From the IMG/VR virus record IMGVR_UViG_2861069343_000001: 64,000 nt of DNA. The stretch is one strand, 5' to 3'. The DNA comes from a virus (taxonomy: Duplodnaviria; Heunggongvirae; Uroviricota; Caudoviricetes). The number at the start of each line of letters is the position of its first letter. The first letter of the stretch is position 1. Position numbers and translations under genes: made by a program. The notes beneath the pieces are model-generated. The model did not search any database and was not told where the DNA came from. It saw only the letters and a program-made list of their open reading frames with translations. Below, one piece after another: positions 1 through 51,822 of this stretch.

Positions 1-575
1 TCAAGGAATTAAAATTAAAACACAATCTAAAACCTGATTTCGAAATCAAGTGGACTAAAGTATCTGCGTCCAAAGTTGAATTTTACTTAGATGTCGTAGA
101 TTACTTCTTCAGCAACCCAGCATTGCGCTTTAGAGGTGTTGTTGTTCCTGATAAAGAGCAACTGGACCATGCTCGATTCCATCAAGATCATAATACTTTC
201 TATTATAAGATGTTTTTTTATGTCTTAAAAAACATAATAGAAAGTAACAACACATACAATATCTACCTAGATATAAAAGATACTTTAGGTATTGAAAAAA
301 TTGAGAAATTAAGAGGGGTTCTTCACAATGATCGCTATGATTACAATCATGAGTCGATAAACAGAATTCAACATATACGATCTCATGAAGTGCAACAATT
401 GCAGCTAACGGATCTTTTCATTGGTGCGTTAGGCTACGTTCATCGAGGAATGAATAGCAACGCGGGAAAAATCCAAGTCATAAACAGGATAAAATCACAT
501 ACAAACAGGGAGTTACTAAAAAGCACTCTTCCAACAGAAAGTAAATTTAATATTTTCGTGTGGGAGGCTCGCTGA
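1..575 (+). CDS. hypothetical protein, 5' end outside window; possibly DUF3800-like
   Basis: Reading frame is open from the window edge to the stop at 573-575; AT-rich; C-terminal QLQLTDLFIGAL segment resembles the DUF3800 C-terminal motif as I recall it (weak, by eye). Confidence 0.4.
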   Translation, partial: KELKLKHNLKPDFEIKWTKVSASKVEFYLDVVDYFFSNPALRFRGVVVPDKEQLDHARFHQDHNTFYYKMFFYVLKNIIESNNTYNIYLDIKDTLGIEKIEKLRGVLHNDRYDYNHESINRIQHIRSHEVQQLQLTDLFIGALGYVHRGMNSNAGKIQVINRIKSHTNRELLKSTLPTESKFNIFVWEAR

Positions 576-1039
576 TGCTTCAAATGCCAGATTTATTGTA
601 CTTCAATGGAAGTTGGCAAGAGTATATAGACGATGTATATGATGTTGTCAGAGAAGACATTTTAATCTCTAATATAACGTTTAAGGGTCTCCCTGTTCGA
701 TTACGTTATTCACCGGAATATGATGGGAAAGAGTTCGGATTTTGGCATTTAGTATCAGAGGGAAAAAAAGAAGAAGAACGTATACCCGATCTTGAACGGT
801 GCAAGCGAATTCGCTGGATCGCGCATATGATAAGGAATTATAACCATTGCGATATATCATGTTGGTCTGAAAGACGAGGACCAACTGAAGAGTGGGTAAT
901 CTGGAATGAGTGTGAAAACTACGTTGTTGTGCTATCCGCACGTAGAGACTATTGGCTTCTCAAAACAGCCTATGTTGTAACCTATGACAGTAAAATCAGA
1001 ACACTCAAACAAAGCAGAAAAAGAGCACTTGGGACATAA
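575..1039 (+). CDS. hypothetical protein
   Basis: ATG at 575 overlaps the upstream stop (ATGA-type coupling); AT-rich ORF; no recognisable motif. Confidence 0.4.
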   Translation: MLQMPDLLYFNGSWQEYIDDVYDVVREDILISNITFKGLPVRLRYSPEYDGKEFGFWHLVSEGKKEEERIPDLERCKRIRWIAHMIRNYNHCDISCWSERRGPTEEWVIWNECENYVVVLSARRDYWLLKTAYVVTYDSKIRTLKQSRKRALGT

Positions 1040-1205
1040 AAAAGCTGAACCCGACACATATTGCTATGTATCGGGTTCGATCGCTCTTTCTACACATGGT
1101 AGATGAGTAAGGCAAATCTAACCGATCTACTTTAGCTTTTCAATAGCTAGCTATAACTTTCCGCATATATTCTTCTGATAATTCCTGGAGAGCGGTTGGG
1201 TTTTC

Positions 1206-1502
1206 TCATGCTTTTCTGCGCAGAGAAGCACACTTATTCAGCAATAATAAATGCAATTCTTTGTTATCACTAAGTATTTCTACACACCAATATCGTAACG
1301 TGTTCACTTCAAGTGTAGCCAGCACCTTATGTCGAAAAGCCCCCTCCCCTACACATAACGATGGCTGACATTCTGCTAAGGCACATAACCATGTATTGGC
1401 ATCATAGAGAACCCAATAATGCTCATCTGAAATAGTTATGCATCCAATTATTTCGAATCTTCTTTCTATCGTCTCAGGAGAGTATGAAAAATCAATTTCC
1501 AT
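1206..1502 (-). CDS. hypothetical protein
   Basis: 98-aa ORF on the opposite strand in the same AT-rich block; no motif recognised. Confidence 0.3.
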   Translation of the reverse strand: MEIDFSYSPETIERRFEIIGCITISDEHYWVLYDANTWLCALAECQPSLCVGEGAFRHKVLATLEVNTLRYWCVEILSDNKELHLLLLNKCASLRRKA

Positions 1503-1540
1503 AACATGCTCAAAATCTATCTATACCGGCATAATTTAAG

Positions 1541-1568
1541 CACAAAAAAGCTCCCGAAGGAGCTTTAA
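1541..1568 (-). terminator. intrinsic terminator downstream of the tail tube gene
   Basis: Hairpin agctccttcgggagct (GC stem, tetraloop-like) followed by a T-run on the minus strand immediately after the 1586 gene end. Confidence 0.6.
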
Positions 1569-2723: not shown

Positions 2724-3539
2724 TTAGCCAAGGCGCTTACGGCGCAGTTTCATTGACTTTTTGCGGGCAAGTTTTGCCGCGCCGGTCTGGGCTTTTCGAC
2801 GCGCTTTTTTCAGCGCCGATTTTTGAGCCGCAGTCAGACGTTTTTTCCGCAGGCGTTTACGGATGAGTTTGATCTCACCGTTACGAACAACCTTCTTAAA
2901 TGCTTCAGTCAGCATTTCATCAGAAGTGCCAGCAACAACAAACGCCGCTTCCAGTTCATCACGGTCGTCGCTATCTAAACCAGCGATAGAGGCACCAACA
3001 TCAGCAGCTGCGTCGTCGTCTTCATCGTCAGCCAGTGCTTCGATCAGGTCATCATCTACACCGCATGCTGCGAGGAAGTCAGCAACATTTGCCCATGCTT
3101 CGTTATAGGCATCGTCCTGTTCTTCTGTAACTTCGGAGTCGTCGTCATCAGAGATACCAGCGATAGCCTGAACGAAACCATCAAGGGAGTCGAAAGTCAG
3201 ATCACCGCTATCAGCCCAGGAGAAAACGGCGTCGGCCGCATCACTCAACGCATTCTGCATAGCACTTCGATTTGCAGCTTCCAGAATCATCTGGTGCGCC
3301 TGTTCGACGGTCCATTCTTTACCGTCTTTCCCTTCCAGGATTTGCTCTGGAGCCGGGGCAGATGGAACGTTATCGTTAGTCTGTGCCGCCGGTTCCGGAT
3401 TATTATTAATAACCGGATCTGTTGGCGGTTCGGCGCTTGCTCGGGCAGACTCCATCAGCTGCACAGGATCAGAGTTCAAAGCGAAACGGGACAGTCCATT
3501 CCCCAAAAATGCCCCGGATTGAAAAAAGTTTTTGCTCAT
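2724..3539 (-). CDS. acidic protein with strongly basic C-terminal tail
   Basis: 271 aa; long D/E-rich core followed by a K/R-rich C-terminus (KRLRKKRLTAAQKSALKKARRK...); sits in the structural operon. Confidence 0.5.
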   Translation of the reverse strand: MSKNFFQSGAFLGNGLSRFALNSDPVQLMESARASAEPPTDPVINNNPEPAAQTNDNVPSAPAPEQILEGKDGKEWTVEQAHQMILEAANRSAMQNALSDAADAVFSWADSGDLTFDSLDGFVQAIAGISDDDDSEVTEEQDDAYNEAWANVADFLAACGVDDDLIEALADDEDDDAAADVGASIAGLDSDDRDELEAAFVVAGTSDEMLTEAFKKVVRNGEIKLIRKRLRKKRLTAAQKSALKKARRKAQTGAAKLARKKSMKLRRKRLG

Positions 3540-33299: not shown

Positions 33300-34096
33300 G
33301 GTAGAGCCTCCAATCGGTAGAACATGTATTTTTCAATGAAGGAACCGATGACTTTTTCGTGGATTTCCACGGAGCGCGAGAAGCAGAGTGTTTTACGTGT
33401 CAGCCGCTTAATGCGGGTGGTAGGGTCAGGTTGTTACGTTCAATTCGCTGCGTGAAGATTTTTCCGGTCAGGTGTTTCTTCTTCGGCACTTCTTTGGCGT
33501 AGCTCCCCCAGTCATCGGAGGTCAGCATTCCAATGTTAAAGGGCGCGAGTAACGCCAGTAATTCACGACAGGTTTCATCGGTACGTGGACCAAAAGTGTA
33601 GGCCAGCACGCCCCCCCGTTTTGGTGTTGTACGCATACCAGAGCCAGTGCTGCCGGGCTTTACTGCCAACGAAGCTCCATTGCTCATCAAGTTCGCAGAT
33701 AAGCGCCACATCAGCATGTGCAACGGGTGAGGAGGTTATTCGCTTCGGGGAGAGTTTTTTTAAAGTTCTGATGACGGTGTTGATGCCAACCTTCAGTGTT
33801 CTGGCGGTATCACGGACACCTGCGCCGTTATGAGCCATTTCAACGATCTGCTCCTTCACGCCGGGCCTTCAGGCTTCATAAGAGTAATCGCTCTGGAAAA
33901 CACGTTTACATGAGCGACAACGAAAGCGCTCATGCCTGGAACAACTACGACCATGTAGATAAACTTTATCTGAATTACAACGCGGACAATGAACAGTAAC
34001 GGTAGCCATGGCAAACCTAAAATACCAATAGACTATCAGAAGTTTCTATCTATCGAGAGCATAACCGATTAGATATTAACTTAGGTGCCAACCAAA
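33300..34096 (-). mobile_element. IS1-family insertion sequence, apparently decayed
   Basis: Minus-strand translation gives an InsA-like zinc finger (CPRCNSDKVYLHGRSCSRHERFRCRSCKRVF), an HTH and a colinear InsB-like transposase, interrupted by a stop and at least two frame changes; IS1-like imperfect terminal repeats at both ends; boundaries approximate. Confidence 0.6.
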
Positions 34097-34234
34097 ATAA
34101 GAATACCCTCATATGTAGCTGTCAAAGCTTCAGTTTTCTTGCTGGACAAATCGAGGTGGTTTTGATAAAAAATGATTTTTTTGCTTTGGCCTTTGTGAAT
34201 GATCTTGTGTAGGGCTCACTGGTGAGGGGTTACA

Positions 34235-35869
34235 ATGAGCAATATTAAATATCGTAAAGATATTGATGGTTTGCGTGCGGTAGCAATATTGCCTGTATTG
34301 CTTTTTCATGTTGGGTATTCTGGATTTAGTGGTGGATATGTTGGTGTAGATATATTCTTCGTTATCAGTGGGTATTTAATTACAAAGATTTTAATAAACG
34401 ATATTAATAATGGAACCTACAGCCTGTTAACCTTTTACGAAAGAAGAATTAGGCGGATAATTCCGGCGCTAACCTGCGTTATTTTATTTGTTTTGATTGC
34501 ATCCCCTTTATTCCTTGCCCCGGATAACTATTCCTTTCTACCAAAAGAAATAATAGGGACTCTTCTTTTTGCTTCGAACATTGTCAGTTTCTTAAAGTCT
34601 GGTTATTTTTCGACTGATGCAGAACAAAGACCTCTACTTCATACATGGTCTTTGGGCATAGAAGAACAGTTTTATATTATATCCCCGATCGTATTATTTT
34701 TATCATTTAAATACTTTAAATCAAGAGTGGGTTTAATTCTTTCGCTATTTGCTATTGTATCTTTTGCGTTCAGCGTAATTCTTACAAAGAACCATCCTAC
34801 AGCATCATTCTACCTTATTCCTACAAGGTATTGGGAGCTGTCTTTCGGTGCTCTTGCAGCTGCTGGCGTATTCAAAAAAGCGAAAGGGAGGCGCCAAAAC
34901 GAGGTGCTTTCCATTCTTGGTTTGTTGCTAATATTATTTTCTATATTTACATTTACATCGAAGACTGTTTTCCCAGGTTACGCCGCACTTCTACCAGTGC
35001 TTGGCGCAACCCTTATTATACTGAACGCAGAGGATACCCTCGTTGGGAAAATGCTAGCTTTAAAACCGTTAGTCTTTATCGGTGTGATTTCTTATTCCCT
35101 TTATTTATGGCACTGGCCGCTGGTAGTCTTTTCTCATGATAAATATATAATAGATCTCAACTTATCAAGAGAGATGTTGGTTGTTTTATCGATTTTAATC
35201 GCCTGGTTTTCAACAAGATTTATTGAGGCACCTTTTAGAAACAAGCAGTCATATGATAGAACGAGAATTTTCAAATATTCTAGTGTTGCATATTCATTAC
35301 TATTTTTAACCTCGTTAGCAATATGGCCTCTTAAGGGATGGACAGATAGACTTAGTGATGAAAAAGCATATATTTTATCCTCAACCAAAGACTACAGCCC
35401 TGTAAGAGACAAGTGCCATTTCAGTTCAGGTGTTCCGGAAACTACGCAGTATTGTATTTTAGGTGTAAAAGATATTGAGCCAAGCTTGTTTGTTTGGGGT
35501 GATAGTCATGGGGCCGAGATATCCTATGCGCTGTCTAAATTGACAAGCGTGTATACAGCCACTTACTCAGCGTGTCCGCCAGTAGTCGGATTCACTTCAA
35601 CCGAAAGGCCGGAGTGTCAAGCTCATAATATGCGCGTTCTTGATTTTATTCTAAATAATAAAAAAATTAAAAATGTAGTTCTTGCAGCCAACTACAACAA
35701 GTATGAAGGAGATGAGAAATACAGTGGTTTTGTAAAAGGTTTTGAAAATACAGTAAAGAAACTTACCGACGGTGGTAAGAGAGTAACAGTTTTAGACCAG
35801 ATTCCATCTCCTGGCGTAAACGTACCCAACGATTTAGCAAATGCAAAGTTCATAGTTAATAAGAGTTTC
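34235..35869 (+). pseudogene. acyltransferase-3 (OafA/Oac-like) with SGNH domain, 5' portion interrupted by IS2
   Basis: N-terminal RAVAILPVLLFHVGYSGFSGGYVGVDIFFVISGYL and multiple TM segments typical of AT3 acyltransferases; GDSHG (SGNH block I) present; reading frame ends at the first three bases of IS2. Confidence 0.75.
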
Positions 35870-48796: not shown

Positions 48797-49438
48797 ATGG
48801 ATAAGAAAATATGCGTTGTTTCGATGAGCGTCGGCAAACCGGCGTCAATGACTGCCGCATGGATCAACAATGAGCTGATAATGGCTGAGCGGACCAGCTA
48901 CCCTGAACGCCGCCGCGATATGGAACTCCAGCTGCTGCGCGAATTGCAAGAAAAAGAGGAAAAGGGTTTTATCGTGCTGGTGGAAGAGGAAAACAGCTTT
49001 ATTACGGGTCGAGTTGGCCAGCGTGTAAGGTTGCGCGATCCCTTCATGAACGGCAGGCCGGTACTAATTGAAGCAATGCAGATTTACAAGGAGCTGGAAC
49101 GCCAGAAAGCGATCAAGTTACCGCGCAAAGAATCCGGCAAATACATCCTCCACCAAAGCATCTTCGATTCCGAACACGACAAAAAAGGCGATGAATTTTT
49201 CAACATCAACTGGAGCGAAATAACGACAGAGCACGTTCTGTCGTTGTTATGCTGCTTCGCAACGGAATATAACAACGTTGCAAGCGCCGACTACATCAGG
49301 GCAATGGCTGGAGAAGTTGAGGCCCGCCAGGAACCATCGTTACTAAGCCCTCTGATTAACATAATTCGCGGAACCCAATGTCTAGCCGACAAGCGAGTTC
49401 CTCAAGGCTTACTTACCGGCAAAGAAAACTATTTATAA
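48797..49438 (+). CDS. hypothetical protein (mat-position)
   Basis: Start moved to ATG 48797 (MDKKICVV) with SD-like aagggg; terminator-like hairpin plus T-run upstream. Confidence 0.5.
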   Translation: MDKKICVVSMSVGKPASMTAAWINNELIMAERTSYPERRRDMELQLLRELQEKEEKGFIVLVEEENSFITGRVGQRVRLRDPFMNGRPVLIEAMQIYKELERQKAIKLPRKESGKYILHQSIFDSEHDKKGDEFFNINWSEITTEHVLSLLCCFATEYNNVASADYIRAMAGEVEARQEPSLLSPLINIIRGTQCLADKRVPQGLLTGKENYL

Positions 49439-49528
49439 TTAATTACGTCAGTAGCCAATAGAGATTTTTGTTGTGGAACAAAAATATATATTTTACAATC
49501 TAGTAACTTTGGGTGGAGGATTATTACA

Positions 49529-50569
49529 ATGATGAATATTAAGCCGCTGAAAATTAGGAACAAGGTCATGAAGCCTCATAAAGCATTATTAAACCCTGAC
49601 CTAACCGCAAGGAATGTACTTACATACAGTCATTGGGATTTTGTCGAACTCTGGTTAAAGCGAAACGAAAAAGATGAGGCTCTTTTTTATTGGGAGCAAG
49701 CAAAAGTATTTAATCAGGCGGCCAATGGTTTACCCAACCAATCAGCCCCACTTTTGCACTATTATTCATTCATGAATGCAGTAAAGGCGTTACTTTCATC
49801 TCGCAATATAAACTTCAAACAGCATCATGGTGTTGCTAGGGGTGAAAATACAGCCCAAATTGATAACTTATCTGATATAAAAGTAAAAATAAAAAATGAG
49901 GGTATACTTCCGTCTTTTTCAAAATATATTGACGGCACCTCTCATGAGGGGGTGTACAATATAAAAAACCTTTTTTCTGGATTGCCATATATTCATCGTA
50001 CATATTGCCTTACTTATGATGTAACTGATGATATATTTATTCCACTGATCGATGCTGAGTTCGTTTTGAATGAGTCAGACAATAGCCTGTTTTTCACTGC
50101 GATTTTATCCAAGGATTTTCGGTTCGACACAGTTTTCGACATTCTACCGCCAGCGTTCGAATTGTTTGAAAGAGAAAAGTACAAAATAAAATCAGTAGAA
50201 TCATTACTTGATTTTAATGAAAATCAATCGTCCAACATGCCGCAATTAACTGAATTTCATCAAAAAATAAGAAGAGATCTTTACTATATCAATGGCGCAG
50301 AGACTCTTTGGTATCTCAAACGTAAAAACAATCAATCTGAGCATACTTCTGTTTCAATATCGCCATTGGTTATAACCCTAGCAGCTATGCATCGATTAAG
50401 TGAGCTATGTCGGTATGACCCACTTAAGCTAAGACAGTTACTAAATGAAAAAGAAAACTGGATTATTGCTGAATTTATTCAACAATCTCCGTCACAGTTT
50501 ATAGATGCAATTTCATCTGAAATTACTGGACACCAATTTCTTATCCCAAACGTAAGGTCTGCTTCTTAA
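49529..50569 (+). CDS. uncharacterised protein A of an AT-rich two-gene cargo module
   Basis: 346 aa; strong SD ggagga; own promoter-like TTGTGG-17bp-TACAAT upstream; AT-rich relative to flanks; no catalytic motif recognised by eye. Confidence 0.6.
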   Translation: MMNIKPLKIRNKVMKPHKALLNPDLTARNVLTYSHWDFVELWLKRNEKDEALFYWEQAKVFNQAANGLPNQSAPLLHYYSFMNAVKALLSSRNINFKQHHGVARGENTAQIDNLSDIKVKIKNEGILPSFSKYIDGTSHEGVYNIKNLFSGLPYIHRTYCLTYDVTDDIFIPLIDAEFVLNESDNSLFFTAILSKDFRFDTVFDILPPAFELFEREKYKIKSVESLLDFNENQSSNMPQLTEFHQKIRRDLYYINGAETLWYLKRKNNQSEHTSVSISPLVITLAAMHRLSELCRYDPLKLRQLLNEKENWIIAEFIQQSPSQFIDAISSEITGHQFLIPNVRSAS

Positions 50570-51078
50570 TGAATATATATATCGCATGCGCTTTAACTCA
50601 TGTTCCAAGGGAAATTTTCCATGAGTACAGTAATTGGATTCACAGCCTTGCAAAAGGTCTATCTCAAAATAACAACGTAAAATATGCTTTGATAAATAGT
50701 GACCCAGAATTATCAAAGCGCCCTGAAAGTAACAAATCTAGACTTTGTTACATTTGGGACAGAGATATGGTTGAGAAATCTGATGTAATAATTGCAGAAT
50801 GTAGTTTTCCATCAACAGGGCTAGGAATAGAGTTGCAGATTGCTGAACAGAAGAACATTCCTGTAATCATCTGTTATAAAGATTATGGGATAAATAAAAC
50901 TAAAACCATTGAATACGTGAATCCAGATGAGACTACCCATAATCTACAAGTTGGCGAGGGTTTCATTTCTCATATGGTATTAGGACTACCAAACATCCTT
51001 GATGTCATATTATGTAAAGATATTGATAACACATGCAGGAAGCTAAAAATACTGTTAGATATGATTAACCATAATTAA
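50569..51078 (+). CDS. nucleoside 2-deoxyribosyltransferase-like (SLOG/NDT-fold) protein B
   Basis: 169 aa; ATG overlaps the stop of gene A; IYIACAL ... DVIIAECSFPSTGLGIELQIAEQKNIPVII matches the NDT-family pattern (kiYlAGp ... D.GTafElGyA.a.gKPv). Confidence 0.6.
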   Translation: MNIYIACALTHVPREIFHEYSNWIHSLAKGLSQNNNVKYALINSDPELSKRPESNKSRLCYIWDRDMVEKSDVIIAECSFPSTGLGIELQIAEQKNIPVIICYKDYGINKTKTIEYVNPDETTHNLQVGEGFISHMVLGLPNILDVILCKDIDNTCRKLKILLDMINHN

Positions 51079-51136
51079 AAATTAACACCCACTTAAGATG
51101 TCTAAACCAGCCCGGTATTAACCGGGCTAGACAAAC

Positions 51137-51385
51137 TTAATCAGCATTCAGGAGCAATGCATTATCTATGATGATTTGCTCCCATTCTTCGAATGCCCGG
51201 TCGCGGACGCCCTGGGGAACGCTGTTAGTTTTGAAATCGACGACCGTACGCCATTTCCCGTCCGGGCGGTACATGCGCAGAGCTTTACTTCCCCCTTCCC
51301 TGCGCACCTCAACGTTATGCTTATCAGCAAACTCTTGTAATGCTCGTAGCGTCCCATGCTTTACTGTGTAGTATCGCTTTTTCAA
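51137..51385 (-). CDS. small protein (lxc-position)
   Basis: 82-aa ORF downstream of the darB operon on the same strand. Confidence 0.5.
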   Translation of the reverse strand: MKKRYYTVKHGTLRALQEFADKHNVEVRREGGSKALRMYRPDGKWRTVVDFKTNSVPQGVRDRAFEEWEQIIIDNALLLNAD

Positions 51386-51822
51386 GTTTTCTCTCCAGCC
51401 TGTGCCAAGGCTTCAACTTCCAAATCGTAAGACTCAAATTCATAGTCCTGGTCGTCAACTTCTTCAGGCACTGGCAGTAAATGCCAGGCTGAGTATATCT
51501 GACCATTATCAAAACGCTCCTGGCTGTAGAGCGTCGCGGCTATGAGTGTTAGAGCCGGGCGGTCATAACGGTAAATTTTGCGAACGTCACGGTCAACGAG
51601 ACGACCGAAATTACCATAACCGCGCTCCAGTAATAATTTTTTAATTTCCGGCCAGTATGGACCATAGCTGCGGTACAGGCGGGGATTTTTCAGTAATCGC
51701 CCGCGTAGCCCTGACAGGAAGAAATCAACGTATTCGTCTTCTGTCTTTCCTAACAACGCTGTACGGAGTACCGCCTCAAGATATGTTTTATTCGGTTTTA
51801 TTGTATCAGATAGTGTGGCCAT
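51382..51822 (-). CDS. hypothetical protein (ulx-position)
   Basis: 146-aa ORF between darB and the 82-aa ORF, overlapping stop/start. Confidence 0.5.
   Translation of the reverse strand: MATLSDTIKPNKTYLEAVLRTALLGKTEDEYVDFFLSGLRGRLLKNPRLYRSYGPYWPEIKKLLLERGYGNFGRLVDRDVRKIYRYDRPALTLIAATLYSQERFDNGQIYSAWHLLPVPEEVDDQDYEFESYDLEVEALAQAGEKT

Follow-up and report, generated by a model that had tools for sequence, protein, structure and literature searches.

Genes at the left edge of the window

The window, that is, the whole stretch of 64,000 nucleotides analysed here, began with an AT-rich block. The G+C content of positions 1-1543 was 37.3%; it was 47.6% over the whole window and 50.4% in the neighbouring stretch from bplB to gene 22. 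Only 9 of 625 segments of the same size had a G+C content as low as that of the block. Two other low-GC islands, at approximately 33,700-35,500 and 48,800-51,500, were equally extreme (35-39% G+C) and probably represented further variable cargo of the P1-type genome.

A comparison of 1,600 nt of the block revealed 99.8% identity to rapA-rapB-upf52.1 of P7 and 98% identity to rlfA-rlfB-pmgF of P1, and the block matched many IncY P1-like plasmids from E. coli and Salmonella with 100% identity. Moreover, both flanks were arranged as in P1 and P7, with kilA-repL upstream and bplB-pmgG-21-22-23 downstream. Judged by its sequence, the block is rlfA-rlfB-pmgF of a phage-plasmid of the P1/P7 type, and its three open reading frames are real genes with homologues for each (Table 1). 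An earlier note on this DNA had recognized both the compositional break at the left edge and the same three frames (one crossing the edge, a coupled one of 154 aa and an opposite-strand one of 98 aa), and it was right on both counts. Its description of the block as one of unknown function has to be amended, since the genes had already been named in P1 and P7. The comparison with the equivalent position of P1 that the note had proposed returned the same genes because P1 and P7 themselves carry rlfA, rlfB and pmgF. The upstream extension that it had also proposed was possible with a 100%-identical plasmid, which supplied the full rlfA gene of 234 codons and placed the window start at codon 45.

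Table 1. Genes and hairpins of the block, with positions in the window.
Feature	Position	Strand	Description
rlfA (P7 rapA)	1-575	+	190 codons in the window, 45-234, and stop; frame 3, entering at the left edge; TGA at 573-575
rlfB (P7 rapB)	575-1039	+	154 aa; start overlaps the rlfA stop (TGATG)
Hairpin, 14-bp stem	1047-1078		between the convergent rlfB and pmgF; T run on the minus strand
pmgF (P7 upf52.1)	1206-1502	-	98 aa
bplB terminator hairpin, right edge of the slot	1544-1566 (hairpin 1547-1566)	-	G+C-rich hairpin followed by a T run

Both hairpins were detected by a terminator scan. The one between the convergent genes corresponded to positions 3027-3058 of locus L011, which came from an identical plasmid, and it read as the terminator of pmgF because its T run sits on the minus strand. 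The other was located immediately past the stop of the gene at 1586-2095. It had previously been taken for the terminator of a tail tube gene. The hairpin was found as described, and the gene proved to be bplB, which is a baseplate gene according to the P1 authors and a tail tube gene according to RefSeq.

A variable slot of P1-like elements

The slot occupied by the block was bounded on one side by the late tail operon and on the other by the lytic replication gene repL, which is located shortly before the window starts. Homology to the backbone of RCS47, SJ46 and most P1-like plasmids extended 11 bases into the C1 operator behind repL, broke off there, and resumed at window position 1544, at the bplB terminator. 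The left junction was thus inside the C1 operator Op55 (L011 1686-1702), 150 nt upstream of rlfA. Op55 was ATTGCTCTAATTATAAC in P1, P7 and the present element, and RCS47 and the hokD-type plasmids kept only ATTGCTCTAAT of it before the sequences diverged. In the GenBank records of P1 and P7, an operator of the C1 repressor (Op55/Orlf) is annotated ahead of rlfA. It preceded the predicted promoter of rlfA by ~95 nt and did not overlap it.

Among the records sharing the bplB end, rlfA-rlfB-pmgF was present in 98 of 658 P1-type plasmid records and in 8 of 19 phage records. Other elements carried different cargo at the same place. Namely, RCS47 had an IS and a 198-aa gene, SJ46 had a Lom-like outer-membrane protein together with 83-aa and 210-aa genes, and many IncY plasmids had hokD, which encodes a type I toxin, together with an 81-aa gene and no pmgF. 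One example of the hokD-type slot was found at L047 2867-3449 (NZ_CP117721.1), a record that also had mcr-1.1 beside the kilA region. The cassette was present in 120 of 5,426 complete E. coli genomes and was almost always plasmid-borne there. The patchy presence and the different cargo of the slot supported the earlier proposal that the block had been acquired horizontally. It has previously been reported that eight regions of P1-like phage-plasmids are variable and low in GC, rlfA-rlfB-pmgF among them (PMC9603915), and that the block is replaced in pSvP1 and pTZ20_1P (PMC6906374).

The only profile matched by PmgF was phrog_7349, of unknown function, and its relatives formed two protein clusters, all of them P1-like. 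Its N-terminal 65 aa were 45% identical to the N-terminus of the 198-210-aa protein that RCS47 and SJ46 encode at this place. The match was confined to these residues, and a search downstream of pmgF for remnants of the longer SJ46/RCS47 protein, as would be expected of a truncated pseudogene, found none. According to CRISPRi data for P1, knockdown of rlfA, rlfB and pmgF resulted in EOPs of 1.3, 0.88 and 1.2, so that all three genes were non-essential for plaques, and knockdown of repL was likewise tolerated (PMC10695390). A morphogenetic role of pmgF in P1 was rejected because of this EOP, the absence of the gene from hokD-type P1-like plasmids and its replacement in RCS47 and SJ46, where a longer and divergent gene is found. 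This agreed with the view of the earlier note that the block was not morphogenetic, and the block was not part of a conserved structural backbone. Membership of pmgF in a defence cassette was rejected as well, since the gene was missing from the chromosomal rlfAB loci, occurred in no non-P1 rlfAB locus examined and was located beyond the end of the cassette homology. Thus, pmgF is a small, dispensable gene that shares the slot with rlfAB but is separate from the cassette.

Properties of RlfA and RlfB

The fragment of RlfA encoded in the window matched the Pfam family DUF3800 (PF12686) with an E-value of 8.8e-8 and 33.4 bits (cut-off 21), and its full-length homologues all belonged to PF12686, which turned a weak DUF3800 call made in the earlier note into a firm one. 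RlfA had more than 5,000 homologues and further matched PADLOC PDC-M04A (E 1.1e-75) and phrog_3732. Its D12-E13 motif was in the first 44 codons, upstream of the window, and was read from the identical plasmid copy; the C-terminal QxxD motif was present as QLTD at window positions 402-413. The protein had a type-2 RNase H-like fold (RNase HII/H2/HIII superfamily) with four conserved active-site carboxylates, and this apparently catalytic acidic set was invariant across phyla. No HTH, RHH or AbrB domain was matched in RlfA.

RlfB matched PADLOC PDC-M04B (E 4.1e-52) and phrog_16230, had ~1,800 cluster representatives, and matched no Pfam or NCBIfam model. There was no NCBIfam match for RlfA or PmgF either, and a PDB sequence search with RlfA and RlfB profiles revealed no solved relative. 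In a structure model, RlfB was a small alpha/beta protein whose nearest solved folds were, weakly, RNase toxins of the RelE/colicin D type. The best structural matches were BECR-fold RNase toxins, namely RelE/YoeB/YafQ/HigB and colicin D/CdiA, over ~75-80 residues with modest scores, and Foldseek returned nothing significant. Therefore, the description of RlfB as RNase toxin-like was a lead and not a result. Among 150 representatives at <=50% identity, residues F56-W57-H58, R69, R75, R78, W81 and W97 were 92-99% conserved, a pattern compatible with a nucleic-acid-directed active site. Homologues of RlfB were labelled 'oxidoreductase' in NCBI and 'replication protein' in RefSeq and PHROGs. Since there was no NCBIfam match, these names had no model support, and they look like propagated guesses.

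A mobile two-gene cassette

In 65 of 66 loci, rlfB was immediately preceded by an rlfA gene of the same orientation. The GTDB species-representative loci found with RlfB had this order in 34 of 35 cases, the 35th being cut by a contig end, and the IMG/VR viral contigs in 31 of 31. The pair occurred in Gammaproteobacteria, Saccharibacteria, Planctomycetota, Verrucomicrobiota, Chloroflexota and Acidobacteriota, and in one case the RlfA C-terminus was fused in frame to RlfB. In Enterobacter, Biostraticola and Scandinavium, the chromosomal copies of rlfAB shared 69-73% nucleotide identity with the P1-type copy. The homology extended from 10 nt before the rlfA ATG to 69 nt past the rlfB stop, included the hairpin, and ended on the right at L011 3088, which is window position 1108. 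Thus, rlfA, rlfB and the downstream hairpin form a self-contained, horizontally mobile two-gene cassette, and the presence of this 1.25-kb unit in chromosomes of other genera further supported horizontal acquisition.

The neighbourhoods were counted in 38 distinct non-P1 loci, where type I restriction-modification (RM) genes were considered if they were on the same strand and within about 5 kb. Such genes were found beside the pair in 13 of the loci, usually in the order hsdM-hsdS-[A-B]-hsdR, and the other 25 had no adjacent restriction genes. In Methylomonas and Algoriphagus the pair was flanked by hsdS and hsdR within a type I RM operon. Other neighbours included reverse transcriptase, pAgo, KwaB, SIR2, SymE, MmeI and integrases. 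In Enterobacter ludwigii the pair was the last cargo of a lambdoid prophage, adjoining its integrase, and in the distant viral contigs (~13) it was mostly no more than a few kb away from the contig end.

Several individual loci deserve mention. The type I RM operon of Algoriphagus pacificus contained a reverse transcriptase gene directly upstream of the DUF3800 gene (L007 8470-9975), and a Piwi-domain (pAgo) gene followed hsdR (L007 15557-17614) in what was a dense defence island. Decayed cassettes were also observed, with an in-frame stop in rlfB in Methylomonas and a split rlfA in a deltaproteobacterial MAG, and truncated copies of rlfA or rlfB were found elsewhere, including two P1-like viral contigs (sites of decay: L005 10633-11175; L023 9261-9993; L036 293-763; L045 8516-8791; L064/L065 5977-6273).

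The PADLOC entry matched by both proteins, PDC-M04, belongs to a set of 145 phage defence candidates. These were predicted by 'guilt by embedding' from genes lying inside BREX, DISARM or type I RM systems, and PDC-M04 is listed in the supplementary table under cassette CAS_00034 with the remark 'assign as candidate' (Payne et al. 2024, bioRxiv 10.1101/2024.01.29.577857). The embedding behind this call was reproduced independently by the neighbourhoods described above. The HMM searches and defence-system annotation that the earlier note had recommended thus yielded DUF3800 as well as both PDC-M04 components.

Possible functions of the pair

We lean towards the view that rlfAB is an accessory conflict module, acting in defence, exclusion or abortive infection, in which an RNase H-like nuclease is combined with a small RNase-toxin-like partner. 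The matches to PDC-M04 A and B, the rlfA-rlfB pairing, the type I RM embedding and the accessory status of the pair all supported this view. The accessory status followed from the low G+C content, the presence in a minority of elements, the alternative cargo of the slot and plaque formation that was unaffected by knockdown. The suggestion of a defence or exclusion locus in the earlier note thereby gained support as a hypothesis, with defence itself staying a prediction.

If this is the case, the lysogen, or else the phage during its replication, would be protected by rlfAB, and the targets would be other phages or mobile elements. Abortive infection would be a plausible route: RlfA and RlfB would form a complex, and an infection cue would unleash its nuclease activity, possibly including a putative RNase activity of RlfB. 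A candidate cue might be an RNA-DNA hybrid or another phage nucleic-acid intermediate recognized by the RNase H-like subunit. We found no experiment on anti-phage activity of PDC-M04 or rlfAB in the searchable literature, where rlfA/rlfB, PDC-M04 and DUF3800 received annotation-level mentions alone and no activity had been demonstrated for any DUF3800 protein. It also speaks against defence that at least two other PADLOC candidates had no defence phenotype when tested, and that restriction genes did not adjoin the pair in 25 of the 38 non-P1 loci. Moreover, rlfAB may be repressed in the lysogen and expressed with the lytic functions, because the C1 operator is annotated upstream of rlfA, and lytic-phase expression fits a prophage-protective role less well.

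Another argument against a conflict module is that an RNase H-like enzyme beside a transcription-activated origin makes a role in replication plausible. RlfA would then process R-loops or RNA primers at oriL, inside repL, as an accessory factor of P1 lytic replication, with RlfB as its cofactor. The pair was indeed located immediately downstream of repL/oriL on the same strand, it was preceded by a C1 operator as in other early lytic operons, the type-2 RNase H fold of RlfA was genuine, and a transcriptome study placed rlfA/B among the early replication genes. However, the annotation 'replication-linked function' rests on position alone. Approximately 85% of the P1-type plasmids with the flanking backbone did not have rlfAB, and those examined kept repL. 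Conversely, the cassette was found across phyla in chromosomes, in restriction operons and in unrelated prophages where repL was missing. The replication label was disfavoured for these two reasons, and we regard such a function as unlikely. The EOP of 0.9-1.3 upon knockdown also spoke against it, although this argument is weak because knockdown of repL was tolerated too.

The gene arrangement could also be that of an addiction module, in which a RelE/colicin D-like RlfB would be neutralized by RlfA and loss of the plasmid would kill the segregants. The genes overlapped and the small toxin-like protein came second, as in relBE and yefM-yoeB. RlfB itself was small, was encoded second in the overlapping pair and had a conserved His/Arg cluster, and its fold weakly resembled those of the RelE/YoeB/YafQ/HigB and colicin D/CdiA toxins. 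Additionally, the element was a low-copy plasmid prophage, and another common allele of the slot carried hokD, a type I toxin. On the other hand, RlfA was larger than RlfB and resembled neither a DNA-binding nor an intrinsically disordered antitoxin, it kept its apparently catalytic acidic set, and neither Pfam nor NCBIfam gave a match to a toxin-antitoxin family. P1 already has phd-doc, and the chromosomal copies in restriction operons need no addiction. Toxin-antitoxin addiction therefore appeared improbable, although its mechanism overlaps with that of abortive-infection defence. A canonical type II toxin-antitoxin pair was rejected, RlfA being a protein of 234 aa with an RNase H-like fold and no HTH, RHH or AbrB domain.

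Comparison with known systems

The conflict-module reading can be set beside systems that have already been described. The closest was the locus of P1 and P7 themselves, which had the same genes, order and neighbours (repL upstream, bplB downstream) and differed in nothing of substance; the copy in the window was closest to that of P7. The pair was like PDC-M04 in that rlfA and rlfB matched its A and B profiles in the defining order, with genes overlapping by one base. Unlike the defining cases, the P1 pair was found in the cargo slot of a phage-plasmid and was not embedded in another defence system. PDC-M04 itself is a predicted system.

A works-like analogy can be drawn with PrrC, a single ATPase-nuclease protein that serves as the anticodon nuclease in the EcoprrI type I RM operon. 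Many rlfAB homologues shared the position of prrC between hsdS and hsdR on the same strand, and the nearest folds of RlfB included the tRNA anticodon nuclease colicin D, as a weak match. In contrast to PrrC, rlfAB encodes two proteins, one of them RNase H-like, and the P1 copy had no adjacent type I RM genes. There was no sequence relationship between them, and the PADLOC scans matched PDC-M04 alone.

DUF3800 proteins are also found with type VII retrons, Cas12a2/Cas12a3 and Cas13 (Csx32). They share with RlfA the Pfam domain, the RNase H2-like fold and the N-terminal DE and C-terminal QxxD motifs, and they all occur in immune contexts. The present locus differed from theirs in that a reverse transcriptase, a TPR domain and a CRISPR effector were missing and RlfB was the partner. 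An Rfam search around rlfA-pmgF (L001 5500-7700) returned no DUF3800-associated motif or other RNA at E <=1. We rejected a type VII retron or CRISPR accessory as an explanation for the copy in the window, since there was no RT, Cas gene or ncRNA and the neighbours were repL and rlfB.

A more specific version of abortive infection can be formulated, which we consider a long shot. The DUF3800 subunit would sense RNA-DNA hybrids or cleaved-tRNA products and control RlfB, which would be a BECR-type nuclease of tRNA or mRNA. If true, this would provide the first mechanism for the whole DUF3800 superfamily and would link the P1 pair to the DUF3800 partners of the tRNA-cleaving Cas12a3 and Cas13 systems and of type VII retrons, as well as to eleven DUF3800-associated RNA motifs.

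The same co-occurrence of DUF3800 domains with retron reverse transcriptases and RNA-targeting CRISPR effectors could be taken as a sign of counter-defence. In that case, RlfA would be an early RNase H-like enzyme that destroys an immune nucleic acid of the host, e.g., the msDNA of a retron or an RNA-DNA hybrid signal, and the phage-borne location and apparent C1 control together with early genes would fit. However, most homologues were in cellular chromosomes, inside RM operons and beside other defence genes, and such a chromosomal restriction-operon context is a signature of host defence and not of anti-defence. In retrons, moreover, DUF3800 belongs to the host system. We consider counter-defence very unlikely.

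Significance for P1 and DUF3800 proteins

Few phages have been used in genetics as much as P1, and in Enterobacteriaceae P1-like phage-plasmids are vehicles for the spread of resistance genes. The locus, its variability and its candidate-defence status were all on record beforehand. What was added here is the pairing in 65 of 66 loci, the share of about one third of non-P1 copies in type I operons, and the mobile unit formed by rlfA, rlfB and the hairpin. For twenty years, rlfA and rlfB have carried a positional guess ('replication-linked'), which spread as 'replication protein' and 'oxidoreductase'. The evidence points instead to a mobile conflict module distributed across bacterial phyla. 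If confirmed, this would correct a widely copied annotation and add a prophage-encoded defence to the biology of P1. It would also offer a genetically easy entry to the biochemistry of DUF3800 proteins.
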